The translations under genes and the position numbers were made by a program. The notes below the pieces were generated by a model that worked only from the letters and a program-made list of their open reading frames with translations, was not told the origin of the DNA and searched no databases. Shown in pieces: positions 21,021 to 42,691 of a stretch of 64,000 nucleotides of DNA (its first letter is position 1; each line of letters opens with the position of its first letter). The DNA is from a virus: the UHGV virus genome UHGV-0098755; one strand, given 5' to 3'.

Positions 21021-21046
21021 TTTCTGTTCCTCCGTAGTTGATAGTT

Positions 21047-21080
21047 GTATAGTACCACAGAGGAACAGTCTTGTAAACCA
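21047..21080 (-). promoter_or_regulatory. T4 early-type promoter (conserved cassette)
   Basis: GTTTACA ... TGGTACTATACAACTATCAAC. Confidence 0.5.
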
Positions 21081-21395
21081 CTAAAAGAAACTTCTTTCAC
21101 AATTTTTTCCACTGAACCAAGCGCTCACTGCTTTCTTAGTCTCAGGAGCAGTGTTATCCATAAACCATTCAAAGGCAGCCTTTTTATGATTCTGGAGGGC
21201 TTCTCGGGCTTTAATCTGCTCACGGTCTATTAACACTAACATATGAGCCTTTCTTGTCACCATGGGCTTCTTATGATTTTTTGAATACTCCCAGTCATTT
21301 GTCCATCGCATTGTCGTTGCGAATTGAAATACAGCTTCTTTAATCTTAGTTTCGTAAATTTCACGAGCCTTTGAGTATAACATCACTACCTCCAT
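21081..21395 (-). CDS. hypothetical protein
   Basis: 104 aa ORF. Confidence 0.45.
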   Translation of the reverse strand: MEVVMLYSKAREIYETKIKEAVFQFATTMRWTNDWEYSKNHKKPMVTRKAHMLVLIDREQIKAREALQNHKKAAFEWFMDNTAPETKKAVSAWFSGKNCERSFF

Positions 21396-21484
21396 TTACC
21401 AGTTTAATTCTAATCATCTTTTTGATGGCAGTCCATATAATCTATTTCTGAACTGCCTTTTTGTCATAGAAGTCCTCTTATGAA

Positions 21485-22465
21485 TTATTTTAGAAGAGTA
21501 ACCTCAGCAATTTCTTCCCAACCATTTTTGTCGGTCATAATAAAGTCAGCAAGATAAAGAGCAGTACGCAGTGAAACATTGCGTAAACGATTAACATTAA
21601 CTTTCATCCATGATAATGCTTTATAAGTTTCTTCATCAGAAAGACCGCGCTTTTGCATCATGTCAGTTGAAAGAATAACATCTTCAACCCTGACCATAAT
21701 TTCTTCATTAGTGTGAACACCCAAATCTAAATAAACCGAGCGGGACACTAATGCTTGTAAGTGTGGAGCAAGTTTAGTACCACGGTCTAATTCGCGGTCA
21801 ATGTCAACGTTTGTGATAAAAACAATCGTTCCTTTAAATTCAAACTCACGGTCAATGCCTTTTTCTTCTAAGTAAGAAGATGCAGTGCTCCAGCAGACTT
21901 TACGGGTCTCTCCAGTGTCCAGAGCAGCTTTTAGAAGATTAAGAATGTCCATATCAGAGAAAACATCCACATCATCAATCAAAAGGACAGAATTCTCTTC
22001 ACGATTATTCCAAAGCTGTTCATAAAGACCAATACCAGAGATTTTACCATTAATGCTTTTATATTCAATGTATCCATTATCATTTGCTTTATTTAAAGCT
22101 TTATCTAAAGAATACGTTTTACCAATACCTGCTGCGCCAGAGATAATTAATGAACGAATATTTCCATTAATAATACCATTCGTCATCATTCCCATAACAT
22201 TAAATCTTTTATTAATGCGGGTTTTCATATCTTCATACGATTCTTTAACTTCTTCAACTTTTACACCATCATATGAAATATCTGATTTGTAAACCCAAAC
22301 ACCGCGACGTTTACCGTCAATTTCAACAAAAACTTTACCATCTCCTTGTGCATCTACCGGAGCATTATCTGGGAACCATTCGCCTAAGAGCTCAAAAGTT
22401 CCAGAGATTTCTTTACCGAAGTAGATACCCTTATTGATAGTTACAGTTTTCATTTTATTCTCCAA
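21485..22465 (-). CDS. P-loop NTPase (AAA-like) of unknown function
   Basis: 326 aa; Walker A SGAAGIGKT and Walker B VLLIDDVD. Confidence 0.6.
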   Translation of the reverse strand: MENKMKTVTINKGIYFGKEISGTFELLGEWFPDNAPVDAQGDGKVFVEIDGKRRGVWVYKSDISYDGVKVEEVKESYEDMKTRINKRFNVMGMMTNGIINGNIRSLIISGAAGIGKTYSLDKALNKANDNGYIEYKSINGKISGIGLYEQLWNNREENSVLLIDDVDVFSDMDILNLLKAALDTGETRKVCWSTASSYLEEKGIDREFEFKGTIVFITNVDIDRELDRGTKLAPHLQALVSRSVYLDLGVHTNEEIMVRVEDVILSTDMMQKRGLSDEETYKALSWMKVNVNRLRNVSLRTALYLADFIMTDKNGWEEIAEVTLLK

Positions 22466-22488
22466 TTTTACATTTGTTTTGATAGGGT

Positions 22489-22521
22489 AATAGTATCACA
22501 CTACTACCCTGCTGTAAACAA
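22489..22521 (-). promoter_or_regulatory. T4 early-type promoter upstream of the P-loop protein gene
   Basis: TGTTTACA ... TGATACTATTACCCTATCAAAAC. Confidence 0.5.
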
Positions 22522-22522
22522 T

Positions 22523-22786
22523 TTATTTTAATGTTTGCCAAATTTTTACTGCTTCGCGACGAGATACTTCTACGGCGCCAAGTTCTATAGCTTTTTGGCG
22601 TCGCCGAGCGTGTAAGTCATAATGTTTAATGCGTTTATCTTGAAACCAAGAACGTTTCATTCCTATTGCTTCTGCCATTTCGTGAAGCTCTTCAATATCT
22701 CCATCAGTGAACATATGACAATTTTTAGTTGGATGACCGCGAAGTTTCCATCCATGATTCATTAAAACATCTACGTAAACTGTCAT
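22523..22786 (-). CDS. hypothetical protein (nrdC.11 position)
   Basis: 87 aa ORF. Confidence 0.45.
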   Translation of the reverse strand: MTVYVDVLMNHGWKLRGHPTKNCHMFTDGDIEELHEMAEAIGMKRSWFQDKRIKHYDLHARRRQKAIELGAVEVSRREAVKIWQTLK

Positions 22787-22932
22787 TGATTCTTCTCCAA
22801 ATAAGTTTCGATAATTTTCTGGGCGAGATAAACCGCGTTATCTTCAGTTGCGTCTTCTAAGAAACTTTCAAAACACTCTGAAATTTCTTCTGTATCAATC
22901 AACTTTTTTACTTCAATTGGTGTAATTTTCAT
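22784..22932 (-). CDS. hypothetical small protein
   Basis: 49 aa ORF (below track cutoff) read by hand; stop overlaps next gene's ATG. Confidence 0.3.
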
Positions 22933-22965
22933 TTTGTTTTCCGTTTAAGTGTTTGTTTTGATAGT

Positions 22966-23000
22966 TGTATAGTACCATAAAGCTTTATGCTTGTAAACCA
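22966..23000 (-). promoter_or_regulatory. T4 early-type promoter (conserved cassette)
   Basis: GTTTACA ... TGGTACTATACAACTATCAAAAC. Confidence 0.5.
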
Positions 23001-23015
23001 CTTTGTGAAAAATTT

Positions 23016-23048
23016 TTGAAATAAAAAAGGGGACCTCTAGGGCCCCTT
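23016..23048 (-). terminator. intrinsic terminator after the 161 aa gene
   Basis: GC-rich hairpin then U6. Confidence 0.55.
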
Positions 23049-23057
23049 TGTGTTGAT

Positions 23058-23543
23058 TTATTCCATTTCTACTATATGCATGTTCTTTTTGCTATCAAAA
23101 TATATGTTTTTAACTATTAACTCAGAATTAATTGGCAGTAAAAACTCTCTTTCATAATCTACCATACAAAGATTATCATAAAGCTTGTTAAGCTTATCAT
23201 CGTCAGTTTGGCCAGATTCTTCAATTGCGATTAAATTTTCTAAAATGTCAATCATAGCAGTCGAATAGTCGAAAACGTTTGCATTTTTTAACACTACTAA
23301 AACATTAGTCATATAGCGTTCTGCCGCAAACGTTTCAGCTATATGAGACTCACTGCTAAAGGAAGTTATTCTTTTAAATTTGATTCTCCTATTAACTTCA
23401 AACTTATAAGATAGCACTTCCTCTATTGTAAGTCCTCTAAAAAGCACGTCTTTAATCTCAAGTTTGTCTTTAATGTAATCATTAACACGCTTATGATTAA
23501 AATCATTAATTTTGTTGCCAAGGCATTGCATTAAAATATGCAT
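23058..23543 (-). CDS. hypothetical protein with ADP-ribosyltransferase-like R / S-x-S / E-x-E motif spacing
   Basis: 161 aa; FRG (~aa 36), SFSSES (~aa 62), YEREF (~aa 130); own promoter and terminator; motif match by eye only. Confidence 0.35.
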   Translation of the reverse strand: MHILMQCLGNKINDFNHKRVNDYIKDKLEIKDVLFRGLTIEEVLSYKFEVNRRIKFKRITSFSSESHIAETFAAERYMTNVLVVLKNANVFDYSTAMIDILENLIAIEESGQTDDDKLNKLYDNLCMVDYEREFLLPINSELIVKNIYFDSKKNMHIVEME

Positions 23544-23587
23544 TGTATTCTCCTCAATTTTTAAAGAGCAATTAATTAACTACACAT

Positions 23588-23621
23588 ATATTATAATATG
23601 CTTTGCGATAGAAGTAAACAA
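23588..23621 (-). promoter_or_regulatory. T4 early-type promoter for the 161 aa ART-motif gene
   Basis: TGTTTACT ... CATATTATAATAT. Confidence 0.45.
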
Positions 23622-23641
23622 CTTTGTGACGTCATTTTAAA

Positions 23642-23669
23642 CAAAAAAAGGGGAGCCCGAAGGCTCCCT
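23642..23669 (-). terminator. intrinsic terminator after the nucleotidyltransferase-like gene
   Basis: GGGAGCC-TTCG-GGCTCCC hairpin then U7. Confidence 0.6.
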
Positions 23670-23670
23670 A

Positions 23671-24684
23671 TCATTTATAATAACTTCGGTGGTTTTCAAG
23701 ATAAACCCTCTCAAGGAAGTCATCCCAGAAACCCATGTCTACTTTTTGCTGCATACCGTTCTTAGAAGCTTCAATTGATGCTGCTTCTACTTGATCGACC
23801 ACATCTTCCAAAAACTCTTGAACCGTTTTAAATGGATGTTTACCAAGCTTCACGTCGAGAATAAATGGAGCGTCTTGGAGTGGATAGACTAAGTCACCAG
23901 TTTTGTAAATTTCCAATAGTTGGAGTCCACCACGACAAGCATGACTCAGAGCTTTCCAGTCAATACCCTCATTCGCTTCAGCCTTACGAGCGCGTTCACC
24001 ATATTCGGCATCAAGTTTATTCAAAGACTGCTTAAGCTCAATAAGAGAAAGTGTTGTCTGATATTTACGACCCAACACGGTATAAAACGTTTGTGGGCCT
24101 GTTTTCTCATGATTATGGAATACCCATTCGCAGAATTCGTTCTCTGGAAGACGATGCTTAATATCTTCAACTTTAGTGCGACGTTGCTTAATAGAACCAT
24201 CTTCTTGGTAATCAACCCACTGGTCAGGGATTTGATTAACTACTTTCAATACATCACGTAATGCGGCCAAACGAGAACCCTTGACACCGTATTTAGAAGC
24301 TTGCTTGCGAACATATCCTAAATAGGATTTCATGTTAGTCGTATAAAAACGAGAACGATTGTCTTGAATGAACTTCCATACATCAGGCAAATCAGATTTA
24401 ACTACCAGTTCAGGTGGAGTGTGGAGCATATCCAATGCTACAGTTTCACCATCTGCTGCTAATTTAAAGAAATACTTAAGACTGTACAGTTCATGGTCAA
24501 TATCATCTTTAGTGTTTTTAGATGATGTGTTGTTAGTGTTTTTACTCATATGCTCTTTAACATTTCCAATAAGAATATCACGAGCAGGAGGAACAAAGAT
24601 TTCTTTAAAATCTACATCAGATTCTGGAGTAGAAGTTCCATAAAGATGACTACCAAAATAGCTTTTCATTACTGTTTTCATCAT
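23671..24684 (-). CDS. Pol-beta-superfamily nucleotidyltransferase-like protein
   Basis: 337 aa; N-terminal YFGSHLYGTSTPESDVDF matches the GS-x(9-13)-DxD nucleotidyltransferase signature; helical C-terminal half; terminator hairpin after stop. Confidence 0.55.
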   Translation of the reverse strand: MMKTVMKSYFGSHLYGTSTPESDVDFKEIFVPPARDILIGNVKEHMSKNTNNTSSKNTKDDIDHELYSLKYFFKLAADGETVALDMLHTPPELVVKSDLPDVWKFIQDNRSRFYTTNMKSYLGYVRKQASKYGVKGSRLAALRDVLKVVNQIPDQWVDYQEDGSIKQRRTKVEDIKHRLPENEFCEWVFHNHEKTGPQTFYTVLGRKYQTTLSLIELKQSLNKLDAEYGERARKAEANEGIDWKALSHACRGGLQLLEIYKTGDLVYPLQDAPFILDVKLGKHPFKTVQEFLEDVVDQVEAASIEASKNGMQQKVDMGFWDDFLERVYLENHRSYYK

Positions 24685-25142
24685 TCAGCCTTATATTCAA
24701 TAACAGGACATACTTTAGCTTTACGCGCTTTTAAAAATTCGACGATAATAGATTTCTTGGGTTGAATAGGAGGTAAACCTTTATACGCCCTATCAATATT
24801 TTCTACGTGTAAAGCATAGTCCTTTTTCCATTTATAATCTTTATATTTTTCATGCAGTTGTGCAGGAATAACAAATGAACCAATAATAAGTAAAACAAGC
24901 AAAATGGCAAGTATAAATGCTGATGGAATAAGAGTCCATAAACTACCAAAAATAAGCCATTTCTGTATGATTTCTGCGCAGATGATAGTTAGACCTGCGA
25001 GTATAGTACATCCGAAAAAAGAAACGAAAAATGTAGGGATAACAATAGACCAAAAGTATGCGCACAGCGTCTTAGGTCGTTGCCATTCATCGTTAAACAA
25101 TTTGAATAATTTATAGTGCCAAGAGTTTTCATTAATAATCAT
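24681..25142 (-). CDS. membrane protein (about 3 TM helices)
   Basis: 153 aa, three long hydrophobic segments; overlaps the nucleotidyltransferase gene start by 4 nt. Confidence 0.55.
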   Translation of the reverse strand: MIINENSWHYKLFKLFNDEWQRPKTLCAYFWSIVIPTFFVSFFGCTILAGLTIICAEIIQKWLIFGSLWTLIPSAFILAILLVLLIIGSFVIPAQLHEKYKDYKWKKDYALHVENIDRAYKGLPPIQPKKSIIVEFLKARKAKVCPVIEYKAE

Positions 25143-25144
25143 AA

Positions 25145-25666: not shown

Positions 25667-25672
25667 ATTTCC

Positions 25673-26230
25673 TCACTTTGAAATCATAGTTGGAATGACA
25701 GAATCAAGATAAGTCTTTAGCGCAATAGCTTCGTCTTTGGTAAATGTGACAATATGTGATCGAAAATCGTCAATTTGGCGAATAGTTAAGACATCTCCTT
25801 CTTCATAACATTTTGATACATTTAAAACAGTTTCATCATTCTGATCACAAGCGTTAGTAATAATAGCATTGCAATTTTTAAACCATTTTAAACTATGTTT
25901 TCTTTCATTAGAATAATAAAAATATTTAATCTTAGTTATAAAATTATCCCAATTATTAATTGATAAGCATATTGACTCGCTTTCAATATTAAATCCTGGG
26001 CATGAAGAATAAAAATGAATTTTATGCTCATCATTAATGCTTACAATTTTATCAGTATAAGGATTTTCAATTTGGGTTAAATGAATGATTTCACTAGGCG
26101 TAAAATACAGCATATCGTCTTCTTGCGTCAAACGATACATATTATTTACTTTTTCTATAGCCAATTCACCAAAAAGTGAACTAACTTCTAGTACTAATCG
26201 TTTCATATTGATTCTCTTCGACTCACTCAC
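25673..26230 (-). CDS. hypothetical protein, tandem paralog A
   Basis: 185 aa; ...DEAIALKTYLDSVIPTMISK C-terminus similar to paralog B. Confidence 0.5.
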   Translation of the reverse strand: MSESKRINMKRLVLEVSSLFGELAIEKVNNMYRLTQEDDMLYFTPSEIIHLTQIENPYTDKIVSINDEHKIHFYSSCPGFNIESESICLSINNWDNFITKIKYFYYSNERKHSLKWFKNCNAIITNACDQNDETVLNVSKCYEEGDVLTIRQIDDFRSHIVTFTKDEAIALKTYLDSVIPTMISK

Positions 26231-26363
26231 AATTACATACTCCTTTGAATAATATCAATAATATTGTTCACTAGATTATAAGTAAACATTGGGTAATTAT
26301 ATTGAATCATCACATACACAACAAACAAAACTTTCATTCTCTTCTCCTTGACAGTTGACAAGA

Positions 26364-26396
26364 TTACTATATCATAACCTTGCCAACTTGTAAACC
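26364..26396 (-). promoter_or_regulatory. T4 early-type promoter for the paralog/TM/nucleotidyltransferase operon
   Basis: GGTTTACA ... TGATATAGTAAT. Confidence 0.45.
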
Positions 26397-26397
26397 A

Positions 26398-26571
26398 TTA
26401 AATGACGTTTTCAATAAAATTCTGAAGCTTTGTGTGCGCATCAACCATAATTTTCATTTCTTCCTTTGCGAAAGCTGTACCTCTTTCCCGAGCAGAATAC
26501 TCATAGTCAGAAACTGCATTAGCATATTCTTCAATTAGCTTCATTAAAAACATCTGCTTTTCAGTTTTCAT
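26398..26571 (-). CDS. hypothetical small protein
   Basis: 57 aa ORF read by hand, GGTGGA upstream of ATG. Confidence 0.25.
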   Translation of the reverse strand: MKTEKQMFLMKLIEEYANAVSDYEYSARERGTAFAKEEMKIMVDAHTKLQNFIENVI

Positions 26572-26755: not shown

Positions 26756-26757
26756 AC

Positions 26758-26940
26758 TTAAACTCTCGTATTGTGATCGATAATTTCATCAAGAAACATA
26801 TCTAAAGCTTCTAAAGCATTATCAACTTTAGCTTCAAGTTCTTCAATACCTGATAAGGCAAAGTTAATGCGTTCCTCATCTGCTTTGCGAATTAAAGCTA
26901 CCAATTCTTTAATTTTATCTGCTTGTTCGATACTAATCAT
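26758..26940 (-). CDS. hypothetical small protein
   Basis: Track ORF trimmed to ATG overlapping upstream stop (TAATGA). Confidence 0.35.
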   Translation of the reverse strand: MISIEQADKIKELVALIRKADEERINFALSGIEELEAKVDNALEALDMFLDEIIDHNTRV

Positions 26941-27128
26941 TATTCCACCACATATGAAAGAGAGAATATTGCACACGCCATGTGAGTTGCAACTTCATCA
27001 CACATATCATAACGTTTCTTAAGAAGTTCTACAAGTTCTTCACTAGTAACTTCATCCATGTCGACGAAAAAATCACCATTAATGATGACGTAGATATTTC
27101 CTTCTTGATTAAGTGCTTCAATTTTCAT
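26940..27128 (-). CDS. hypothetical small acidic protein
   Basis: Track ORF 26940..27173 trimmed to internal ATG (MKIEALNQ) with AGAGGAG; the longer form would run into the promoter. Confidence 0.35.
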
Positions 27129-27154
27129 GATGTTCTCCTCTTTATCCGATGGTT

Positions 27155-27188
27155 GTATAGTATCACAGTTCAAATGGAAAGTAAACCA
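27155..27188 (-). promoter_or_regulatory. T4 early-type promoter
   Basis: GTTTACT ... TGATACTATACAACC. Confidence 0.5.
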
Positions 27189-30683: not shown

Positions 30684-31145
30684 TCATTGAGTTTTAATTA
30701 CTGCTTTAGAAGCCTTTCCTGGTAAACGACGACTGTTGATAATTGCCATCCTACATTGAAGTGACGGGTCTTTGAACTTCGCGTTAGGTTTACAAACTGT
30801 AAATCCAAGCCAAAGATTTCCATCTGTGATTTCTAAACGTCCAGGACGATATTCAACCCCATCAATAAAATCCTCGTCAATGTCAGGACGCGGAGGCATA
30901 CTAAGGAATTCATTAACTTCTAAAACATGGTCTTTTATTTTATGGAATAATTCAAAAACATATGTCTCGTCAATCTCCCGTTGAATTGCACGATCAAGAA
31001 GATGCTGAGAATATTTTAGATGAAACGATGAGACCCCTGCTGCTTTTGATGCCTCACGAATCTCATTGTTAATTTGACGAAACTCCGACTCAAAGTGACG
31101 ACGAAGCTTATTTCGACGGATAAAAACTTCTGTATTGATAGTCAT
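30684..31145 (-). CDS. regB: endoribonuclease RegB
   Basis: 153 aa, matches recalled T4 RegB. Confidence 0.8.
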   Translation of the reverse strand: MTINTEVFIRRNKLRRHFESEFRQINNEIREASKAAGVSSFHLKYSQHLLDRAIQREIDETYVFELFHKIKDHVLEVNEFLSMPPRPDIDEDFIDGVEYRPGRLEITDGNLWLGFTVCKPNAKFKDPSLQCRMAIINSRRLPGKASKAVIKTQ

Positions 31146-31170
31146 GTTATTCTCCTCTTAACTGATAGAA

Positions 31171-31204
31171 AAATTATACCACAGTCAAGAGGAAAAGTAA
31201 ACAG
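31171..31204 (-). promoter_or_regulatory. T4 early-type promoter upstream of regB
   Basis: TGTTTACT ... TGGTATAATTTT. Confidence 0.5.
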
Positions 31205-33246: not shown

Positions 33247-33375
33247 TTCTGTATTTACCCATTACCGCACTTGGGCTCGACCTTATTACAGGTTGGCGGG
33301 AATCCCTCACAGAATCATGAGGTCCAGCTTGTTCCCATGTTATTTGAATGTAAATAGGCCTAAGTATAGGCCTTA

Positions 33376-33954
33376 TTAATTACCACGGGCTGCATTAGCA
33401 ACGGCATAAGCGTACTGAACATTAGCGTCCTTAAACGTACCTTTAGAGGTATCTATTTCTGCCTTAAAGCCGCCTTTAGCCATAACATCGGCAAATTCTT
33501 TACGGAAAGCCATTGCATCAAGACCTTTCCATGATGATTTGTGCTTAGCGAATTCAAGACCAGCGTAGTTGACAGCCTTAGCTAATTTATTATCAATGAC
33601 CCATTTACCGGCTTTAGGCACAAACTTCGGGCCTTTTTGTTTAGAGAACAGTTTTAAATTCCAGCGACGAAGGTCACTGTCGGCTTTAACAAAAGCTGCG
33701 TCTAAGTTACTAGCAACAACATCTTCAATATGAGCAAATTTAAGTCCGTCAACTTCAATATTTAGATCGTTACGCCAGCGAAGTCCTTCCCAAGCGAAGG
33801 CTTTAAAGTCGGAAGCCTTTGTAGCTAAGTACCGTTCAATAGGAGCTGTTTTAGGGTCAAAGCCGTTTCCCGATCGGTAGGTCCACTCATCTTTATTAAT
33901 GCCTTTGGCCTTTACTATAGAAGCTTCGGCAATAAATTCTTGATAGGTTTTCAT
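33376..33954 (-). CDS. ipIII: capsid-targeted internal protein (IPIII-like)
   Basis: 192 aa; N-terminal capsid-targeting sequence MKTYQEFIAEA with gp21-type I-x-E cleavage site; size as T4 IPIII; early promoter upstream. Confidence 0.7.
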   Translation of the reverse strand: MKTYQEFIAEASIVKAKGINKDEWTYRSGNGFDPKTAPIERYLATKASDFKAFAWEGLRWRNDLNIEVDGLKFAHIEDVVASNLDAAFVKADSDLRRWNLKLFSKQKGPKFVPKAGKWVIDNKLAKAVNYAGLEFAKHKSSWKGLDAMAFRKEFADVMAKGGFKAEIDTSKGTFKDANVQYAYAVANAARGN

Positions 33955-33982
33955 GTGTTTCCTTGTTTGTTTTGATAGAGTA

Positions 33983-34012
33983 ATTATACCATATTAATAC
34001 TTAAGCGTAAAC
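33983..34012 (-). promoter_or_regulatory. T4 early-type promoter upstream of the IPIII-like gene
   Basis: GTTTAC, 18 nt spacer, TGGTATAATTAC. Confidence 0.5.
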
Positions 34013-34015: not shown

Positions 34016-34276
34016 TTAAGCTTTACCGCCAGAAATAATTCCGAAGTTGTTAAAATCATATCCAATATCGTCAACATCTACTTTAGGACTTGCTACAACA
34101 TAAGCAATTTCACTACGTTTTGCACAGGTGTTGATTTCTTTACCATCGCCACCTAAGAAAGAATACCCATTACGTTTTAATGAGCCAAAGTCTTCCGCAT
34201 CACCAATGAAAGCTTTAACTTTAAATTTAGAACCTTTGGCATCTGCTTCAACGATAAATTCTTGATACATTTTCAT
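34016..34276 (-). CDS. capsid-targeted internal protein (IP family, 86 aa)
   Basis: N-terminus MKMYQEFIVEA is a variant capsid-targeting sequence. Confidence 0.6.
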   Translation of the reverse strand: MKMYQEFIVEADAKGSKFKVKAFIGDAEDFGSLKRNGYSFLGGDGKEINTCAKRSEIAYVVASPKVDVDDIGYDFNNFGIISGGKA

Positions 34277-34411
34277 TTTTCCTTAGTAAATTGATTTACC
34301 AAAGTATTTGTACCAAGTCGGACGTTGATCAATTTTTTCATCTAAGCGTGCTTGATTTATCGCAATGGACGCTTCGGACGGGTCATAATTTCCTCCAAGT
34401 AGTTGATGAAT

Positions 34412-34443
34412 ATATAGTATCAAAACCCTTGGAGGAAGTAAAC
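34412..34443 (-). promoter_or_regulatory. T4 early-type promoter inside the denV remnant
   Basis: GTTTACT ... TGATACTATATAT. Confidence 0.45.
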
Positions 34444-34445: not shown

Positions 34446-35686
<1,241 letters not shown>

Positions 35687-37485: not shown

Positions 37486-37526
37486 TCCTATTTACTCCAA
37501 GTAATAGGGGCCGAAGCCCCTTATCA

Positions 37527-38120: not shown

Positions 38121-38162
38121 AGCATTTCCTTTAGTTAATTAAGGGTTTTATAATCCATGGGA

Positions 38163-38190
38163 GTATTATACTCCGGATAGTTTGTAAACT
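38163..38190 (-). promoter_or_regulatory. T4 early-type promoter
   Basis: GTTTACA ... GAGTATAATAC. Confidence 0.45.
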
Positions 38191-38342
38191 ATTTCAACAT
38201 CGCCTTTTGCTGCTTTATAACCTTCAGCCCAAGATACAACCGAGTTTTTATCCGAAGATTCAAATTCTGGCATTGGGCTTTCGCCAATGTTCACGCAGTA
38301 TGTTTCTTCATTTTCGTCAAACCAAATAATTAAAGTAGTCAT
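38166..38342 (-). CDS. hypothetical small protein
   Basis: 58 aa ORF read by hand. Confidence 0.3.
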   Translation of the reverse strand: MTTLIIWFDENEETYCVNIGESPMPEFESSDKNSVVSWAEGYKAAKGDVEIVYKLSGV

Positions 38343-38410
38343 TTATTTCTCTGTTTCTGTATTTGTTTTGATAAGTCTATAATAACACCGTCCTTGGTGT
38401 TTGTACACAA

Positions 38411-38674
38411 TTATTTCATATTATTGAAATATTCTTCAGCGATTTCGTCGTTATCATGGTAAACTTTAGAAGACAGTTTAACATAACTTTCAGCAGTGAA
38501 CATGTTAATCACAACCTTTACAGTATACCACTGACCATCTTCATTACCCATTACTGCATAGGTTTCAAACATCGGATGGTCAGGACCGATAACTTTAATA
38601 TCATTCACTGTACGACCGAAATCTTCTGAAACACATTTCATAAAGAAGTTGAACAGTTCGCCGTAATTATCCAT
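38411..38674 (-). CDS. hypothetical protein
   Basis: Track ORF 38411..38737 trimmed to ATG (MDNYGELF) preceded by GGAGAA. Confidence 0.45.
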   Translation of the reverse strand: MDNYGELFNFFMKCVSEDFGRTVNDIKVIGPDHPMFETYAVMGNEDGQWYTVKVVINMFTAESYVKLSSKVYHDNDEIAEEYFNNMK

Positions 38675-38713
38675 TTCGTTCTCCAAGTTGTTTTCTGTAT
38701 CAGTAGTTGATAG

Positions 38714-38748
38714 TTGTATAGTACCATGGAATGACAAGGGTGTAAACA
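38714..38748 (-). promoter_or_regulatory. T4 early-type promoter (conserved cassette)
   Basis: TGTTTACA ... TGGTACTATACAACTATCAAC. Confidence 0.5.
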
Positions 38749-38875
38749 GTTTTGTGAAAAAATTTTTAAAAAGTTTTAGGGAATTCTAGGGCAAAGAGGG
38801 GCAATTAAAGGATAGGATAATATATTAAAAGGGTAGAAACTAAATGATGCCTAGAGAGGTCCAGAAAGGCCTAGA

Positions 38876-38905
38876 TACTAAAAAGCCCCAACCTTTCGGT
38901 CGGGG
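38876..38905 (-). terminator. terminator hairpin at the 3' end of the tRNA/small-RNA transcription unit
   Basis: GCCCCGACC-GAAA-GGTTGGGGC hairpin then U-run. Confidence 0.5.
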
Positions 38906-39218
38906 CTAAGCCTTGCGGCAACCTTGTCGGGGTTCCACCTGCTAAGGCAAGTGTTTGTACGAAACGCCGGGATTCGAACCCGGTTATTAAGTAGTTGACG
39001 CTACTCAATATTTTTAAAAGGCCATATCTCGACCATATCCGAACGTTCCGTCAAAAACGCTACTCGGCTTACGGCAAAGATATTTCCTCGAATCGATAAT
39101 TCTGTGCGCCGTTTCTGCTGTGATGTAAGGGGACATTAACAGATCGTAAAGATTTGTTAATGCCAGTCCTTACCCAGGGAACATCAGTCCGACGACTTAC
39201 CGGTAGCGACCCGGTTTC
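38884..39218 (-). ncRNA. candidate stable small RNA(s) downstream of the tRNA cluster (T4 RNA C/D-like region)
   Basis: 335 nt without ORF; tRNA-like T-arm (CCGGGTTCGAATCCCGG on minus strand, plus 38964-38980); terminator hairpin at 3' end. Confidence 0.35.
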
Positions 39219-39569
39219 TTAGTATTCTTTTAAAGCATCAATCTGTTCACGGCGTTTACGCCATAAATCAATTGCCTCATACGCGGATTCAGCATTTCGA
39301 ATTGGTCGGCATTTATGTAAAGACTTGTGATTTTGATATTTTGTAGATAATGGAATTTTATCTAAAAGGTCTTTACGTTCAAAGTATTCGTAACCATCTA
39401 AACCAAATGAACGATTTTTGAGAAATTGCCAATGACCATATTCGTTTTGGATGTAAATATAATCCGCGTGTTGATAAAGCAAATTAGTTTCACGAGATGA
39501 GATATGGTTTTCATATTCATTGAAGTAAAATGTTAAATCATGAACTACTAAATAAACATTACCTTTCAT
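39219..39569 (-). CDS. hypothetical protein within tRNA region
   Basis: 116 aa ORF. Confidence 0.5.
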   Translation of the reverse strand: MKGNVYLVVHDLTFYFNEYENHISSRETNLLYQHADYIYIQNEYGHWQFLKNRSFGLDGYEYFERKDLLDKIPLSTKYQNHKSLHKCRPIRNAESAYEAIDLWRKRREQIDALKEY

Positions 39570-39587
39570 ATTTTCCTCACTTATAAT

Positions 39588-39663
39588 TGGTCGAGGCAGT
39601 AGGGATCGAACCTACGACCCAGGACTTAGAAGGTCCTTGCTCTTCCTTCTGAGCTATGCCTCG
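39588..39663 (-). tRNA. tRNA-Arg (anticodon UCU)
   Basis: Cloverleaf folded by hand: perfect acceptor stem, T-arm GGTTCGATCC, anticodon loop CUUCUAA, CCA encoded. Confidence 0.8.
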
Positions 39664-39667
39664 TATT

Positions 39668-39742
39668 TGGCGGACGTGATAGGATTCGAACCTATAACCA
39701 ATCGCTTAACAGGCGATCGCTCTGCCATTGAGCTACACATCC
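39668..39742 (-). tRNA. tRNA-Asn (anticodon GUU)
   Basis: Hand-folded; D-arm GCTC/GAGC, anticodon stem ATCGC/GCGAT, loop CUGUUAA, T-arm TTCGAAT, CCA encoded. Confidence 0.75.
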
Positions 39743-39746
39743 AAAT

Positions 39747-39833
39747 TGGTGGGGAGTGATGGAGTCGAACCACCCGAGTCGCAATGACAATGGATTTACA
39801 GTCCACACCGCTACCTCTACGGGATAACTCCCC
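39747..39833 (-). tRNA. tRNA-Tyr (anticodon GUA), long variable arm
   Basis: Hand-folded 87 nt; anticodon loop CUGUAAA; long extra arm; T-arm GGTTCGACTCC. Confidence 0.7.
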
Positions 39834-39842
39834 AAATTAATT

Positions 39843-39917
39843 TGGTGGCCCTGGGTGGAATTGAACCACCATCTGGCGATTATGAGTCGCTTGCTTGAAC
39901 CTTCCAGCTACAGGGCC
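39843..39917 (-). tRNA. tRNA with anticodon CAU (Ile2/Met type; T4 tRNA-Ile equivalent)
   Basis: Hand-folded; anticodon loop CUCAUAA; T-arm GGTGGTTCAATTCCACC. Confidence 0.7.
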
Positions 39918-39918
39918 T

Positions 39919-39994
39919 TGGTGCTGATTGACGGAATCGAACCGCCGACCTTCTCATTACAAGTGAGTTGCTCTACCTACTGAGCTAAATCAGC
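39919..39994 (-). tRNA. tRNA-Thr (anticodon UGU)
   Basis: Hand-folded; anticodon loop CUUGUAA; D-arm GCTC/GAGC. Confidence 0.8.
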
Positions 39995-39999
39995 AAAAC

Positions 40000-40089
40000 T
40001 GGCGGAGGCGATAGGATTTGAACCTATGAGTCGCCGGAGCGACTGCCGGTTTTCAAGACCGGTGCATTAAACCACTCTGCCACGCCTCC
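40000..40089 (-). tRNA. tRNA-Ser (anticodon UGA), long variable arm
   Basis: Hand-folded 90 nt; anticodon loop CUUGAAA. Confidence 0.8.
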
Positions 40090-40091
40090 AG

Positions 40092-40165
40092 TCTCCATAC
40101 AAGGATTTGAACCTTGGACCTCCTGATCCCAAATCAGGCGCTCTACCAAACTGAGCTACACGGAG
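40092..40165 (-). tRNA. tRNA-Pro (anticodon UGG), CCA not encoded
   Basis: Hand-folded; anticodon loop UUUGGGA; T-arm AAGGTTCAAATCCTT. Confidence 0.75.
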
Positions 40166-40175
40166 TAAATTAAAT

Positions 40176-40249
<74 letters not shown>

Positions 40250-40254
40250 AAATT

Positions 40255-40341
40255 TGGTGCGAGAAGTGGGACTCGAACCCACAAGGAAATCATTCCGCAG
40301 CATTTTAAGTGCTGTGCCTTTACCAATTTGACCATTCTCGC
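40255..40341 (-). tRNA. tRNA-Leu (anticodon UAA), long variable arm
   Basis: Hand-folded 87 nt; anticodon loop CUUAAAA. Confidence 0.8.
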
Positions 40342-40342
40342 G

Positions 40343-40415
40343 CTGGGAATAAAGGACTCGAACCTTTGCATCTAGCAGTCAAAGTGCTATGCCTTACCAA
40401 CTTGGCTAATTCCCA
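40343..40415 (-). tRNA. tRNA-Gln (anticodon UUG), CCA not encoded
   Basis: Hand-folded; anticodon loop CUUUGAC; abuts tRNA-Leu 5' end. Confidence 0.75.
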
Positions 40416-40575
40416 ATTATTAACAAAGGCTCTTAAGCAAGAACCCTTGATGATAGAGGGTATTAATCAGTGCGATATGAGTTAATAATAACAAATAATT
40501 CTTAAAGCAAATTAAACATTTTAACGGTCGGCAAAACAATTTCTTCTTCTATATAAGAGTATTTAACACTCTCAA

Positions 40576-41025
40576 CTACACGCAAAAATCATAATCATAA
40601 TACTCAGAAGCATTACCTAAAATATTAATAAGTCCTTCAAGCACTTTATTACCATTCACAAAGAATAAGTCAAATACACGTTCTTCATCTTCTTCAGATT
40701 TATTACCAAGGTCAACTTCTATATCAAAGACCTTTTTAATGAATTCTGGATAAAGTTGGTCTGAGAACAGTCCTTCAACCAAGTATTCATAGATAAAAAG
40801 CGATTGCTCACTGAACGAAGCATTACCACAATAGTGCTCAATTTTAGTACTAGAATGTCGGCTTTTAAACTTCTTTAAAAGATATTGGAATTGTAAGATT
40901 TCATGCTCTTCTACGCCAAACAGTGTTTTGGTTTTATAGTTGTCACCATCATTTTCCCAGGTAGTGACATCAATTACGTAACCCTGCGGAATTGTAGTAC
41001 CCAAACAAATATTCATTTTCACCAC
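40576..41025 (-). CDS. hypothetical protein
   Basis: 149 aa. Confidence 0.5.
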   Translation of the reverse strand: MVKMNICLGTTIPQGYVIDVTTWENDGDNYKTKTLFGVEEHEILQFQYLLKKFKSRHSSTKIEHYCGNASFSEQSLFIYEYLVEGLFSDQLYPEFIKKVFDIEVDLGNKSEEDEERVFDLFFVNGNKVLEGLINILGNASEYYDYDFCV

Positions 41026-41315
41026 GCTGCATTAATGTAAGTATATTTAATACATTCAAGACCCAAAGGATTCTTGAAAATATCATATTCAAGAGGACCT
41101 TTTTCTGTTTCAATAAAGAAATCAAAATTTACTGTATTAAATTTACGGTCTTCCTTTACTAATTTAACTTGAGAAGATGAACGGTCAATGTAAACCTTTT
41201 CAACTTCAAAACATGTTAAAATGCCATAATCATCAATCAAGGCTTTAGCCGCATCTTGATCATATTTATATCCATTTTCAATGGATGATACTTTCGCATA
41301 AAGAATCACTATCAA
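41019..41315 (-). CDS. hypothetical protein
   Basis: 98 aa. Confidence 0.45.
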   Translation of the reverse strand: MIVILYAKVSSIENGYKYDQDAAKALIDDYGILTCFEVEKVYIDRSSSQVKLVKEDRKFNTVNFDFFIETEKGPLEYDIFKNPLGLECIKYTYINAAW

Positions 41316-41722
41316 CCTCTATCAACAATAGCATGAGTATGGGCATTTACAATTTGCCACCAATCGAAACGATTGGAACCATAATCTGGTTTATTTTCAT
41401 TTTCTTTAATGATATCACGCAGTTTATCTTCTGTTTCAGCATACGCAATTAAATCATCATATCCACCACAAGGATAATAATTATCACCCGCGAATAAAAG
41501 AAAATTTACCTTAGATGGATTTACGTAATAATGGTCTTTAGGATATTTAGTTCCTCTCCAATCAGTTACTTCAACATAACGATAAGAAAATCCATTTTTA
41601 CTTTCAATCCAACTCCACGCTTCAAAAGGAGTATTAAAAACTTTATCAGGTATTAAATTACCTTCAAAATGAGAAGGATTTGCATAATCCCCGGCATAAA
41701 CATAATATTCGTTAATACTCAT
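41312..41722 (-). CDS. hypothetical protein
   Basis: 136 aa, aromatic-rich. Confidence 0.5.
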   Translation of the reverse strand: MSINEYYVYAGDYANPSHFEGNLIPDKVFNTPFEAWSWIESKNGFSYRYVEVTDWRGTKYPKDHYYVNPSKVNFLLFAGDNYYPCGGYDDLIAYAETEDKLRDIIKENENKPDYGSNRFDWWQIVNAHTHAIVDRG

Positions 41723-41908
41723 TTATTCACCTTTAGAAATTTTATCCATAACGATAGCGATTAAACCAATTAAAAATGCTACTACAAGTGAAAACACATT
41801 TTCTGCTGTAGTTAATAATCCGCATATAAATCCAGCAAACATTGAAAAACTAAAAGCGGAAGCAGAAATTGCAATAGCAACATTTCGAATTAATTCACAA
41901 CGTTTCAT
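41723..41908 (-). CDS. small membrane protein
   Basis: 61 aa, two hydrophobic helices; early promoter upstream. Confidence 0.45.
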   Translation of the reverse strand: MKRCELIRNVAIAISASAFSFSMFAGFICGLLTTAENVFSLVVAFLIGLIAIVMDKISKGE

Positions 41909-41935
41909 TTTATTCTCCTCAGTAGTTGATAGGGT

Positions 41936-41967
41936 AATAATATCACTACCCCATCTAAAAGTAAACG
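41936..41967 (-). promoter_or_regulatory. T4 early-type promoter
   Basis: GTTTAC ... TGATATTATTACC. Confidence 0.5.
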
Positions 41968-41976
41968 GTTTATAAA

Positions 41977-42285
41977 CTATTTTATTCCGCGTGATGCAAT
42001 TGTGTTCTGCCGTTTAACGCCAGTTTGTTTAAAGTCATGATTGTCAATTTGATCGGTACGAGCAACTCCGAATGATGATTTGATCTTAGCTTTAGATCCT
42101 TTAGTTATAGAAATAAACATCTCGGAAGCCCCTTTCTTAAAGTCCGAGGCGATTACTTCAACGCCGTTCTTAGCAAGTGACTTCAGAATTGCCTCTGCAT
42201 ACTCATCGTCAAGACTCGTCTGAGTATTAATAACGAATGTCTTTGGCGCAGCCGCTTCATTGATAAATTCTTTAAATGTTTTCAT
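41977..42285 (-). CDS. capsid-targeted internal protein (IP family, 102 aa)
   Basis: N-terminus MKTFKEFINEA is a variant capsid-targeting sequence; own early promoter; at the ipI locus. Confidence 0.6.
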   Translation of the reverse strand: MKTFKEFINEAAAPKTFVINTQTSLDDEYAEAILKSLAKNGVEVIASDFKKGASEMFISITKGSKAKIKSSFGVARTDQIDNHDFKQTGVKRQNTIASRGIK

Positions 42286-42313
42286 TTTATTTTCCTAATT
42301 AATTTTTGATGAG

Positions 42314-42347
42314 ATAATAGTATCACAACCCTATTTAAAAGTAAACT
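42314..42347 (-). promoter_or_regulatory. T4 early-type promoter for the 102 aa IP gene
   Basis: GTTTACT ... TGATACTATTATC. Confidence 0.5.
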
Positions 42348-42619
42348 CATTTTAAATAAATTGCGTATTTTTTATAACCCGCTGACTCATGACGAAGACC
42401 CTTATCATTAGCAAAACGCTCAATGTTGTTAATTTGATTCTGGTCAAGTTCAGAGATGTCAAACACGAAAAAATTACGTTTGTTACCAACTGTTACATAG
42501 TCAGTTAAATCAATATCATATAGGTAATTGATGTCAGCAATCAAAGTCTTGACAGCTTTGCTAATTTTTACTTTTTCGTTAAAAGCAGCTTCAGCAATAA
42601 ATTCTTGATACGTTTTCAT
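42347..42619 (-). CDS. capsid-targeted internal protein (IP family, 90 aa)
   Basis: N-terminus MKTYQEFIAEA is the canonical T4 capsid-targeting sequence; own early promoter. Confidence 0.65.
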   Translation of the reverse strand: MKTYQEFIAEAAFNEKVKISKAVKTLIADINYLYDIDLTDYVTVGNKRNFFVFDISELDQNQINNIERFANDKGLRHESAGYKKYAIYLK

Positions 42620-42647
42620 TTTATTTTCCTAATTAATTTTGATGAGG

Positions 42648-42680
42648 TAATAGTATCACTACTAAAACCCCATGTAAACA
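42648..42680 (-). promoter_or_regulatory. T4 early-type promoter for the 90 aa IP gene
   Basis: TGTTTACA ... TGATACTATTACC. Confidence 0.5.
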
Positions 42681-42691
42681 ACTTTGTGAAA

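Follow-up and report, generated by a model that had tools for sequence, protein, structure and literature searches.

The early region of this virus genome carries a cassette of about 40 bp that recurs in front of small genes. The question is whether the copies are early promoters and nothing more, or whether they also act as homology patches for gene shuffling, as the original prediction proposed. The window (the whole stretch of 64,000 nucleotides that was analysed) comes from a Tequatrovirus, a T4/T2-like coliphage with about 95-97% identity to W143 and T2. Within it, 21000-43000 matches W143, T2, and other Tequatroviruses at 95-97% identity.

The pattern GTTTAC-N15-TGNTAYWAT with at most one mismatch has 17 matches, all 17 on the minus strand, compared to 0.23 expected from shuffled sequences. 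The pattern TAYWAT-N4-YNATCAA, which joins the -10 element to the initial transcribed ATCAA, has 10 matches within 21038-42655, all on the minus strand as well (0.30 expected). The position weight matrix gave 18 minus-strand matches scoring at least 14 and no plus-strand match scoring 8 or more, while a longer, earlier matrix had zero matches across 20 shuffles. This motif search bore out the expectation that at least ten copies exist far above chance. Fifteen copies lie inside 21037-42690 and two further copies lie at 10391 and 18098 (Table 1). All nine coordinates that had been proposed (21037, 22481, 22960, 27150, 33963, 38701, 41921, 42307, and 42638) each mark the low end of a real copy. 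A weaker additional promoter candidate was seen at 44169.

The spacing that had been written for the cassette, GTTTACA-N17-TGGTACTAT, is wrong when taken literally, and the pattern as typed yields nothing relevant. The gap from GTTTACA to TGG is 14 nt, and N17 is the spacer that separates the hexamers TTTACW and TAYWAT. The description of the copies as near-identical was also overstated. Pairwise identity over 65 nt has a median of 0.50 and a maximum of 0.71, compared to 0.27 for random 65-mers, and the full TGGTACTATACAACTATCAA string is present in three copies only. Exact runs common to pairs of copies are 11-29 nt long, the longest being 29 nt (42346/42679), 24 nt (21078/38747), and 21 nt (22998/38747).

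Compilations of the T4 early promoters (Pe) were made by Wilkens and Rueger and by Miller et al. (2003), and a review by Hinton (2010, PMC2988021) gives the consensus TGTG(A/G)TA(C/T)(A/T)AT and a UP/-35/TGn/-10 architecture. The same UP/-35/TGn/-10 architecture is given in bioRxiv 10.1101/2024.04.04.588121. The copies in the window share with T4 Pe the -35 element GTTTAC(A/T), the 17-bp spacer, TGn, the -10 element TA(C/T)(A/T)AT, the A/T-rich upstream region, an additional start-site consensus, and an early-strand position before early genes. GTTTAC is exact in 16 of the 17 copies, TGn is present in 15, and the hexamer spacing is 17 bp in all of them. A/T content upstream of the copies is 0.76 against a background of 0.66. 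Each copy is followed, 20-30 nt downstream, by the ribosome-binding site and start codon with which a minus-strand gene begins. There is no essential difference from T4 Pe, the promoters of the window being predicted ones.

The same matrix run on T4 gave 12 sites at positions orthologous to window copies (nrdC.4, nrdC.8, nrdC.10, mobD.1, mobD.2, mobD.5, regB, ipIII, e.8, trna.4, ipI, and 55.6). We take these 12 counterparts to be the experimentally mapped T4 early promoters of the Miller 2003 list. T4 does not have the modules to which the 23619, 34443, 38408, and 42346 copies belong, whereas other Tequatroviruses have them. Each of the other relatives has 10-17 sites, in every case on the early strand, and more distant T4-like genera have the same promoter family with genus-specific flanks. 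Cassette cores at orthologous positions show no higher conservation than the coding sequence beside them (93% vs 97%). The fit to the T4 early consensus, the co-oriented early genes downstream, and the 12 positional orthologues support the early-promoter reading, and both promoter activity and start sites in this phage are inferred from consensus and orthology.

MotA/AsiA-dependent middle promoters, or chance matches to the sigma-70 consensus, would be conceivable in a region that is A/T-rich, where a generic sigma-70 scan gave 89 sites vs 77.6 expected. A generic consensus match is therefore uninformative here. The specific pattern is far in excess of chance, is limited to one strand, and occurs only before genes, and the MotA box (core TGCTT replacing the -35 element) is present in none of the 17 copies. 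We consider this reading extremely improbable; the strand-limited motif excess, the ATCAA start-region matches, and the lack of MotA boxes refute it.

As early promoters, the cassettes would be recognised by unmodified host sigma-70 RNA polymerase through four elements, namely the A/T-rich upstream region, the -35 element, the 17-bp spacer with TGn at its end, and the -10 element. The predicted start is the A of ATCAA, about 7 nt downstream. Immediate-early transcription of the leftward early genes would run from there through a short A/C-rich leader up to the ribosome-binding site. The copies would resemble one another mainly because all are kept close to one strong consensus. Sub-families have extra sequence in common, probably gained by local duplication or exchange. 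It comprises the -10 and start block, the leader, and, where an internal-protein gene follows, its first 7-10 codons, which specify the capsid-targeting peptide.

Table 1. Predicted early promoter copies and associated features in the window. Copies are named in the text by their high coordinate.
Feature	Position	Strand	Context	Observations
Early promoter copy (-35 G at 10391)	10350..10391	-	Upstream of 55.6 homologue (10149-10331); outside 21037-42690	Exact pattern match; leave-one-out matrix score 38.0; T4 counterpart L001 1707
Early promoter copy	18057..18098	-	Upstream of nrdC.4 (17039-18070); outside 21037-42690	Conserved 94-100% in 9 relatives; no breakpoint at junction
Early promoter copy	21037..21078	-	Upstream of nrdC.8 (20493-21020)	Has TGGTACTATACAACTATCAACTAC; pattern and start-region matches; no breakpoint, 14 relatives
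Early promoter copy	22478..22519	-	Upstream of nrdC.10 (21485-22453); within inserted orf49-orf87 module	Pattern and start-region matches; missing from 8 relatives along with 22466-22925
Early promoter copy, composite terminator/promoter	22957..22998	-	Upstream of orf49/orf87 (22523-22932); terminator stem-loop 23030-23046 just 5'	In T4 and T2 this promoter is joined directly to the nrdC.10 leader
Early promoter copy, composite	23578..23619	-	Upstream of orf161 (23058-23543); terminator stem-loop 23651-23668 just 5'	-10 is TATAAT, no TGn; 41-nt direct repeat (32/41) with region upstream of 22998 copy
Weak promoter candidate	26246..26287	-	Upstream of mobD.1 homologue (25673-26230, GTG start)	Hexamers match; poor leave-one-out score (-4.0); T4 counterpart L001 17883
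Early promoter copy	26354..26395	-	Upstream of mobD.2 (26233-26337)	1 mismatch to pattern; spacer and -10 region inside 36-nt hairpin
Early promoter copy, composite	27145..27186	-	Upstream of mobD.5 (26940-27128); terminator stem-loop 27202-27219 just 5'	No breakpoint across 14 relatives
Early promoter copy	31161..31202	-	Upstream of regB (30684-31145)	98-100% conservation in 9 relatives; no breakpoint
Promoter copy	33971..34012	-	Upstream of IPIII-like internal-protein gene (33376-33954)	Pattern and start-region matches; poor leave-one-out score (only 4.6); breakpoints 33917-33976, leader and first codons
Early promoter copy	34402..34443	-	Upstream of truncated denV remnant (34283-34386)	Pattern and start-region matches; breakpoints at 34378-34390
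Early promoter copy, GTGTAC -35	38367..38408	-	Upstream of orf58 (38166-38342); belongs to replaceable module	Pattern and start-region matches; breakpoints 38411-38416, just 5' of -35 element, 7 relatives
Early promoter copy	38706..38747	-	Upstream of e.8 (38411-38674)	Pattern and start-region matches; T4 counterpart L001 30697
Early promoter copy	41925..41966	-	Upstream of trna.4 (41723-41908); downstream border of second internal-protein locus	Pattern and start-region matches; homology with T4 and UFV13 stops inside spacer; precise deletion 41966/42280 in two relatives
Early promoter copy	42305..42346	-	Upstream of internal-protein gene IP102 (41977-42285)	Pattern and start-region matches; breakpoints in spacer, 42329-42330
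Early promoter copy	42638..42679	-	Upstream of internal-protein gene IP90 (42347-42619)	Pattern and start-region matches; repeat of about 85 bp (promoter, leader, first codons) in common with 42346 copy
Stem-loop	33356..33373	-	Directly 3' of IPIII-like gene; downstream border of first internal-protein locus	Breakpoint cluster; breakpoints 33336-33369 in 7 relatives
Terminator stem-loop, 10 pairs and T-run	38884..38907	-	About 130 nt upstream of 38747 promoter	Insertion site in relatives, 499-1224 bp, bounded by 14-36 bp repeats
Internal-protein genes IP102 and IP90	41977..42619	-	Each a deletable unit between adjacent cassettes	
Predicted start A residues (examples)	21042, 22483, 22962, 38711, 41930, 42310, 42643	-		

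The window was compared with 14 relatives and indel or replacement events were mapped. Of 55 distinct events, 22 begin and end in a cassette, 10 touch a cassette at one end only, and 23 touch none. Of the 47 breakpoint clusters, 43 coincide with a gene junction, cassette or not. Breakpoints were found at 10 of 15 cassette junctions vs 26 of 60 others (p = 0.09), and, when only intergenic gaps of 25 bp or more are counted, at 9 of 14 with a cassette vs 5 of 11 without (p = 0.30). Distinct events per junction number 2.73 at cassettes vs 0.73 elsewhere (p = 0.001; p = 0.11 among long gaps). Cassettes stand at both ends of 6 of 22 junction pairs vs 0.83 expected (p = 2e-4), or 2.42 expected (p = 0.02) when labels are shuffled among gaps of at least 25 bp only; these are few independent observations because all six pairs come from two arrays. 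The tallied shared overlap averages about 25 bp for cassette events, not clearly longer than the 17 bp or so of the others. The general enrichment at cassette junctions is weak to modest and not significant.

The claim that cassettes flank the variable blocks holds at the two internal-protein loci, at the nrdC.10-nrdC.11 modules, and at the e.7-equivalent block. It fails for the mobD-equivalent block, whose breakpoints (24685, 25648, and 26562) are plain gene junctions 640-1070 bp from the nearest cassette. Cassette borders were not found either for the tk.1-tk.3, e.2, trna.3, orf146, and tRNA/segB differences or for a homing-endonuclease insertion. The mobD, tk, e.2, trna.3, orf146, and tRNA/segB events were joined in other ways, at stop and start codons that overlap, at microhomology near an ATG, through tRNA similarity, or by a homing endonuclease. 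Nothing variable adjoins the 18098, 21078, 26395, 27186, and 31202 cassettes in the 14 relatives. Some synteny breakpoints do coincide with cassettes, but the cassettes explain less than half of the events, and cassette recombination does not account for gene-content differences across the region in general.

The clear breakpoint signal comes from two tandem promoter arrays, at nrdC.10-nrdC.11 and at the ipI-type internal-protein locus, where single genes are precisely deleted between adjacent cassettes with 13-85 bp of sequence in common. IP90 is deleted with an 85-bp overlap in 3 phages and IP102 with a 64-bp overlap in 2 phages. Orf161 is precisely absent with a 40-bp overlap in 6-7 phages. 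Orf49 and orf87 are deleted in 8 phages, with the crossover inside CTATCAAAACAAA, a 13-nt repeat common to the 22519 and 22998 copies. The hybrid promoter of T4 and T2 equals the 22998 copy up to this block and then the sequence downstream of the 22519 copy. Homology patches for shuffling are consistent with what is seen at the two arrays; the general enrichment is weak (p = 0.09 and p = 0.30). We infer that, as a by-product of their promoter role, adjacent co-oriented copies, together with the terminator stem-loops preceding some of them, form short direct repeats. Recombination between these would delete, insert, or swap the single intervening gene, and may have occurred repeatedly in the two arrays (22.4-23.7 kb and 41.9-42.7 kb) and the ipIII-type locus (33.3-34.5 kb).

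PeSL (promoter-early stem-loop) cassettes have been reported in T4-type phages by Arbiol et al. (2010, PMC2839356, RB49/phi1) and Comeau et al. (2014, PMC4122927, PST/T4 and nt-1/KVP40). The window shares with them the early promoter, leader, and start codon recurring among small accessory genes, indels or replacements adjoining the promoter, deletions between adjacent copies, and a crossover between the -10 element and the ATG or in the upstream A/T-rich part; its copies also fit the PST/T4 consensus TTTACW-N17-TAYWAT (PMC4122927). The copies could be dedicated mobile terminator/promoter units whose main role is modular shuffling and which are the chief cause of gene-content variation in the early region. 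This would agree with the 32 of 55 events that have at least one end in a cassette in either genome, with the per-junction excess, and with the 39 of 55 events that touch an element once five minus-strand terminator stem-loops are added post hoc (4 of the 5 coincide with breakpoints). Mini-circles between such elements were seen experimentally in RB49 and phi1 (PMC2839356). We regard this reading as quite unlikely. The stem-loop that defines PeSL is directly upstream of only 3 of the 17 copies, a fourth lying about 130 nt upstream of the 38747 copy. Five copies have no adjoining variability, the enrichment is modest against a gene-junction null and fades among long gaps, the mobD, tk, e.2, trna.3, orf146, and tRNA/segB events use other joints, and 12 copies stably occupy positions orthologous to T4 sites.

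Selection offers another explanation, in which the cassettes are promoters only and variable genes either arrive as 'moron' units with their own promoter or survive behind one, the joints being made by illegitimate recombination. In lambdoid phages, a moron is a gene that sits between conserved genes together with a promoter and a terminator of its own. Accessory genes of the window are likewise self-contained promoter-gene(-terminator) units between conserved genes, such as orf161, which has a terminator/promoter composite on either side, and orf58, which carries its own promoter. Unlike those of morons, the window promoters form one family that also serves conserved early genes, and several joints lie inside shared promoter/leader sequence, not at unrelated sites. 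Replaceable modules often bring their own promoter (the 38408 copy with orf58 and the 22519 copy in the orf49-orf87 insert), promoters are also present inside segments found only in relatives, many joints have just 0-20 bp of overlap, breakpoints favour any gene junction, and long gaps are hit about as often without cassettes as with them. However, several deletions are exact recombination products of adjacent cassettes with 40-85 bp in common, the hybrid promoter switches at the 13-nt block, and T4 homology stops within the 41966 spacer and, at the 42679 copy, after the seventh codon of the internal-protein gene. Selection alone is an unlikely account.

T-even phages have polymorphic loci for internal proteins (Repoila et al., 1994, EMBO J 13:4181, as relayed in PMC2839356 and PMC4122927), which those of the window resemble. 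The loci number two, one next to e/denV and one next to 57B, with variable sets of small genes that encode a capsid-targeting N-terminus, an early-promoter-based conserved sequence precedes the genes, and gene presence or absence differs between relatives. In the window, IP102 and IP90 begin with the capsid-targeting MKTFKEFINE and MKTYQEFIAE and vary in presence across relatives. Two of the five internal-protein-type genes of the window (34016-34276 and 34446-34727) differ from this arrangement in having no promoter copy of their own. The link of early promoters with accessory-gene gain and loss is already published for the T4-type group (Repoila et al., 1994, as relayed; Arbiol et al., 2010; Comeau et al., 2014). 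Judged from motif and orthology, the cassettes are very probably strong early promoters of the usual T4/T2 kind, of which a few adjacent copies also mark sites where accessory genes are gained and lost.

A total of 1209 phage records match the region 21000-43000, the best being Escherichia phages W143, ECO07P3, T2, and other Tequatroviruses, with 95-97% identity over ~90% of its length. The T-even gene order was seen after annotations were transferred from the T4 and T2 records. The gene order and strands (listed in the table) therefore place the repeated promoter cassettes in the leftward early/middle region of a T4/T2-like phage.

Positions of genes, promoter sites, and gene-content differences in the window and in T4
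Feature	Position	Strand	Remark
Genes 44/45/46/47, a-gt, 55, nrdG/D, 49, nrdC.x, mobD.x, rI, tk, vs, regB	up to ~46.1 kb	minus	
Internal-protein genes, e, tRNAs, 57B/A, genes 1, 3, 2, 4	up to ~46.1 kb	minus	
Late genes 53, 5 and onward	after ~46.1 kb	plus	
Weaker promoter-like candidate, GTTTAA-N15-TGTTATAAT	44128-44169	minus	upstream of gene 1 (dNMP kinase)
orf161	23058-23543		
e.7-equivalent block	38131-38411		
IP102	41977-42285		
IP90	42347-42619		
denV (endonuclease V) remnant	34283-34386	minus	
Ten tRNA genes	39588-40415	minus	Arg, Asn, Tyr, Met, Thr, Ser, Pro, Gly, Leu, Gln
orf146	40576-41016	minus	between tRNA cluster and trna.2
Homing-endonuclease insertion in relatives, 722-731 bp	21469-21504		no cassette involved
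tk.1 and tk.2-3 differences	28749/28945, 29120		no cassette involved
e.2 difference	35716/36172		no cassette involved
tRNA/segB rearrangements	39219-39979		no cassette involved
orf146 difference	40521/41043		no cassette involved
trna.3 difference	41321/41723		no cassette involved
T4 orthologous sites	before 55.6, nrdC.4, nrdC.8, nrdC.10, mobD.1, mobD.2	early strand	matrix
T4 orthologous sites, continued	before mobD.5, regB, ipIII, e.8, trna.4, ipI	early strand	matrix

The pattern GTTTAC-N15-TGNTAYWAT, with at most one mismatch, has 17 matches in the window (0.23 expected), all on the minus strand, which confirms that the repeats exist. Each copy is named by the coordinate of its -35 G. The promoter and start region that the copies had been predicted to share was also recovered, with ten exact matches of TAYWAT-N4-YNATCAA (0.30 expected), all on the minus strand within 21038-42655. 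The nine coordinates listed in the original prediction are all low ends of genuine copies. Fifteen copies are located inside the predicted span (21037-42690) and two, 10391 and 18098, outside it. The pattern as first written, GTTTACA-N17, finds only one irrelevant match because the spacing was mis-stated: the 17-bp hexamer spacer was put between GTTTACA and TGG, where the real gap is 14 nt. The description of the copies as near-identical does not hold, as their pairwise identity over 65 nt has a median of 0.50 and a maximum of 0.71. The longest exact runs in common are 24 nt (21078 and 38747), 21 nt (22998 and 38747), and 29 nt (42346 and 42679), the last of which consists of the leader and first codons.

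A position weight matrix derived from the copies yields 18 matches on the minus strand and none on the plus strand. Leave-one-out scores are 16-38 in 15 of the 17 copies, and the 26287 and 34012 copies are weak. The candidate upstream of gene 1 differs from the early pattern by one mismatch and scores under the matrix threshold. Discrimination from background was achieved by the T4-specific pattern only, whereas a generic sigma-70 scan of the window was uninformative (89 sites versus 77.6 expected).

Every copy is a minus-strand intergenic site placed 20-30 nt ahead of a ribosome-binding site and start codon; the plus strand and the late-gene half of the window have none. The -35 element is exactly GTTTAC in 16 copies and GTGTAC in 38408, and the base that follows is A or T in 16 of the 17. 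Every copy has 17-bp spacing from TTTACW to the -10 hexamer. The TGn motif just upstream of the -10 hexamer is present in 15 copies (except 23619 and 26287). The hexamer of 26395 is TATAGT; the other 16 copies have TACTAT, TATAAT, or TATTAT. A modest A/T enrichment marks the 25 nt preceding the -35 element (mean 0.76 versus 0.66 background), and TTTCACAAAGT just before that element is common to four copies. Downstream, ATCAA is located ~7 nt past the -10 hexamer and is followed by ACTAC, AACAAA, or AATTAATTAGG, and then by the ribosome-binding site and start codon.

The window copies are built like the published T4 early promoters (Pe), whose architecture comprises UP, -35, TGn, and -10 elements with extra consensus regions (Hinton, PMC2988021), where the -10 motif is TGTG(A/G)TA(C/T)(A/T)AT and +1A is preferred (T4 transcription-start study, bioRxiv 10.1101/2024.04.04.588121). 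The predicted reading as early promoters is thus supported by the -35 element, spacer, TGn, -10 element, A/T-rich upstream region, and position, all of which fit Pe. A MotA/AsiA-dependent middle promoter was considered and rejected, as the TGCTT core between -40 and -6 is present in none of the 17 copies. With the same matrix, 12 sites were located in T4, at positions orthologous to window copies; they are presumably among the T4 early promoters mapped by experiment, although no promoter features are annotated in the T4 records NC_000866 and AF158101. In other close relatives the matrix finds 10-17 sites each, always on the early strand. The same motif family with genus-specific flanks was also found in more distant T4-like genera from IMG/VR, which were used solely to show that the family is widespread. 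Judged from sequence, the copies are early promoters first, with promoter activity and start site being predicted.

The similarity among the copies is mostly their common strong consensus. Sub-families have further sequence in common: the start block and leader and, among internal-protein genes, also the codons for capsid targeting. Where orthologous copies are present, the cassette cores are not better conserved than the flanking genes (93% versus 97%), partly because some copies are mosaic joints; the lower value also fits free spacers.

Most copies differ from the promoter-early stem-loop (PeSL), the published terminator/promoter composite of T4-type phages, in the stem-loop that defines it. 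When every copy was examined, a stem-loop directly upstream was found at 3 of the 17 promoters only (22998, 23619, and 27186). A fourth is located ~130 nt upstream of the 38747 copy, and the best upstream hairpins of the remaining copies do not exceed those of random positions in strength. On the minus strand at 26330-26389, a 36-nt hairpin (AGTTGGCAAGGTTAT...GTAATCTTGTCAACT) encloses the mobD.2 promoter from its spacer through the -10 element to the start region. Its RNA fold of -17.9 kcal/mol is at the level of the most stable hairpins at 150 random positions, and it would form solely in read-through transcripts from upstream.

Gene content was compared with 14 relatives, namely T4, T2, W143, LF73P3, UFV13, P922, ECO07P3, vB_Eco-B1.1, BF15, and five IMG/VR Tequatrovirus contigs. 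These five are the only close Tequatroviruses in IMG/VR, and three of them were lengthened by merging overlapping loci. Events were defined as gaps of at least 40 bp in collinear BLAST chains. An event end was assigned to a cassette when it fell between 45 nt before the -35 element and 95 nt after it in either genome. The 119 events between 16.9 and 46.1 kb were reduced to 55 distinct events, of which 22 have both ends in a cassette, ten have one end, and 23 have neither. Five cassettes (18098, 21078, 26395, 27186, and 31202) exhibit no variable border among the 14 relatives. When terminator stem-loops are counted as elements, which the PeSL definition permits, 39 of the 55 events touch an element, although this count is post hoc.

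The first-pass ends formed 47 breakpoint clusters. Under a uniform-position null, 12 of the 47 are located in cassettes versus 6.8% expected (p=5e-5). This null is misleading and was set aside in favour of junction-level nulls because 43 of the 47 are at gene junctions anyway. Breakpoints are present at 10/15 cassette junctions versus 26/60 others (odds ratio 2.6, p=0.09) and, among spacers of at least 25 bp, at 9/14 versus 5/11 (p=0.30). The number of distinct events per junction is 2.73 at cassettes versus 0.73 elsewhere (p=0.001), and 2.79 versus 1.36 for spacers of at least 25 bp (p=0.11). The junction-level tests lend no support to the view of the cassettes as the chief driver of variation; the general enrichment at cassette junctions is modest. 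Junction pairs with a cassette at both borders are in excess (6/22 versus 0.83 expected, p=2e-4), and still so when the label shuffling is confined to spacers of 25 bp or longer (2.42 expected, p=0.02). Two runs, each of three consecutive cassettes (22453-23671 and 41908-42692), supply all six pairs.

Both runs contain modules bounded by cassettes. In the second, the internal-protein gene IP90 is precisely absent from three relatives, with a flank overlap of 85 bp that covers the promoter, leader, and first codons, and IP102 is precisely absent from two other relatives with an overlap of 64 bp. The IP102/IP90 pair is replaced whole in T4 and UFV13, where homology stops on one side inside the spacer of the 41966 copy (upstream of trna.4) and on the other after the seventh codon of the gene that the 42679 copy precedes. 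In the first run, orf161, a small minus-strand gene between nrdC.10 and nrdC.11, is located between two terminator-plus-promoter composites with a common 41-nt repeat (32/41). Between 6 and 7 relatives lack this gene, with a deletion overlap of 40 bp. The ECO07P3 homologue of orf161 is annotated as a ModA-like NAD-protein ADP-ribosyltransferase, a putative function. The neighbouring orf49-orf87 module is absent together with the 22519 promoter from eight relatives. In T4 and T2 the promoter left behind is a hybrid: it is identical to the 22998 copy as far as CTATCAAAACAAA and, beyond that, to what follows the 22519 copy. The joint therefore falls inside the 13-nt start block CTATCAAAACAAA that both copies contain.

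A crossover inside a shared element, with the module between two elements, was seen at these two tandem arrays only. There, tandem copies may act as short direct repeats, by which single genes between them would be lost, gained, or swapped. The proposal that the cassettes serve as homology patches is consistent with the precise single-gene deletions between neighbouring cassettes at the two arrays, but cassettes account for fewer than half of the events. An account by selection only, where accessory genes simply arrive with their own promoters, explains the presence of promoters inside modules; it leaves unexplained the exact cassette-to-cassette deletion products and the hybrid T4/T2 promoter. 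A further reading is that the start-onward block (ATCAAAACAAA or ATCAACTAC, ~+1 to +12) is a selected crossover site, or the site of a sequence-specific factor, through which promoter-gene units stay exchangeable. The position of the orf49-orf87 joint exactly in CTATCAAAACAAA and the recurrence of related A/C-rich start blocks in other T4-like genera count toward this reading, which we nevertheless consider very improbable.

The claim that cassettes flank the variable blocks stands for the internal-protein loci, the nrdC.10-nrdC.11 modules, and the e.7-equivalent block, which is replaced in several ways with one border immediately upstream of the 38408 copy's -35 element. It fails for the mobD-equivalent block, whose ends (24685 and 25648/26562) are 640-1070 bp from the nearest cassette and whose joints lie where stop and start codons overlap, with 13-23 bp of similarity near the ATG.

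The capsid-targeting N-terminal motif (MKTYQEFIAE-like) is present in all five internal-protein-type genes, three of which have a promoter copy ahead of them (alignment A1). At the first internal-protein locus, joints are located in the leader and capsid-targeting codons (33917-33976 and 34378-34390), and another joint is at the stem-loop just after the IPIII-like gene (33356-33373). Among nine relatives, no internal-protein gene was found in both loci of different phages, which would have pointed to inter-locus movement; the nearest match is one 48%-identical paralogue in T2. In the window, denV is a remnant whose frame opens MTRPKRPLR and then stops, and W143, LF73P3, UFV13, and P922 have 297 bp extra at 34378-34390, flanked by a 13 bp overlap. 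This phage is probably without a working pyrimidine-dimer glycosylase.

Other joints are located at stem-loops. At the terminator stem-loop 38884-38907 (minus strand), six relatives have insertions of 499-1224 bp flanked by 14-36 bp stem-loop repeats. This stem-loop and that at 33356-33373 (minus strand), both terminator-like and without an adjacent promoter, are recurrent insertion/replacement joints in 6-7 relatives. GGGC/GCCC motifs are present in the stem at 38884-38907 and in the promoter-adjacent stems at 23030-23046 and 23651-23668; the stem at 33356-33373 (AGGCCT...AGGCCT) does not have them. Such motifs have been reported at T4 deletion endpoints (Mosig et al. 1998, as cited in PMC2839356).

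The remaining differences involve no cassette (table). The nrdC.9/nrdC.10 insertion is present in W143, BF15, and one IMG/VR relative, and in BF15 (4467-5186) it is annotated as a site-specific intron-like DNA endonuclease. The window does not have it, and the site is therefore a homing-endonuclease presence/absence difference independent of promoters. The window cluster comprises ten tRNA genes and no segB, compared with eight tRNAs and an internal segB in T4. Insertions at tRNA-tRNA joints, with ~34 bp overlap, distinguish several relatives and suggest recombination between similar tRNA genes. The orf146 gene is absent from 10 of the 11 relatives covering the site and is present only in T2 (87% amino-acid identity), with no repeat or cassette at its borders.

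Conserved sequences based on early promoters have been reported at both polymorphic internal-protein loci of T-even phages (Repoila et al. 1994, as summarised in PMC2839356). PeSL-mediated shuffling was proposed and tested in RB49 and phi1 (Arbiol et al. 2010, PMC2839356) and extended to PST/T4 with the same promoter consensus, alongside other contributors including homing endonucleases and random short homologies (Comeau et al. 2014, PMC4122927). The cassettes and shuffling described here are a restatement of what is already known in another Tequatrovirus. Their discovery value is low because both the elements and the shuffling idea have been published for this phage group, and the value of the analysis is calibration. 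Most other gene-content differences are unexplained by cassettes and are located at ordinary gene junctions, terminator stem-loops, tRNA genes, and homing-endonuclease insertions. What the promoter copies in the window do explain is turnover among the internal-protein genes, whose products are injected and act against restriction, and among a few small genes in the nrdC.10-nrdC.11 interval.
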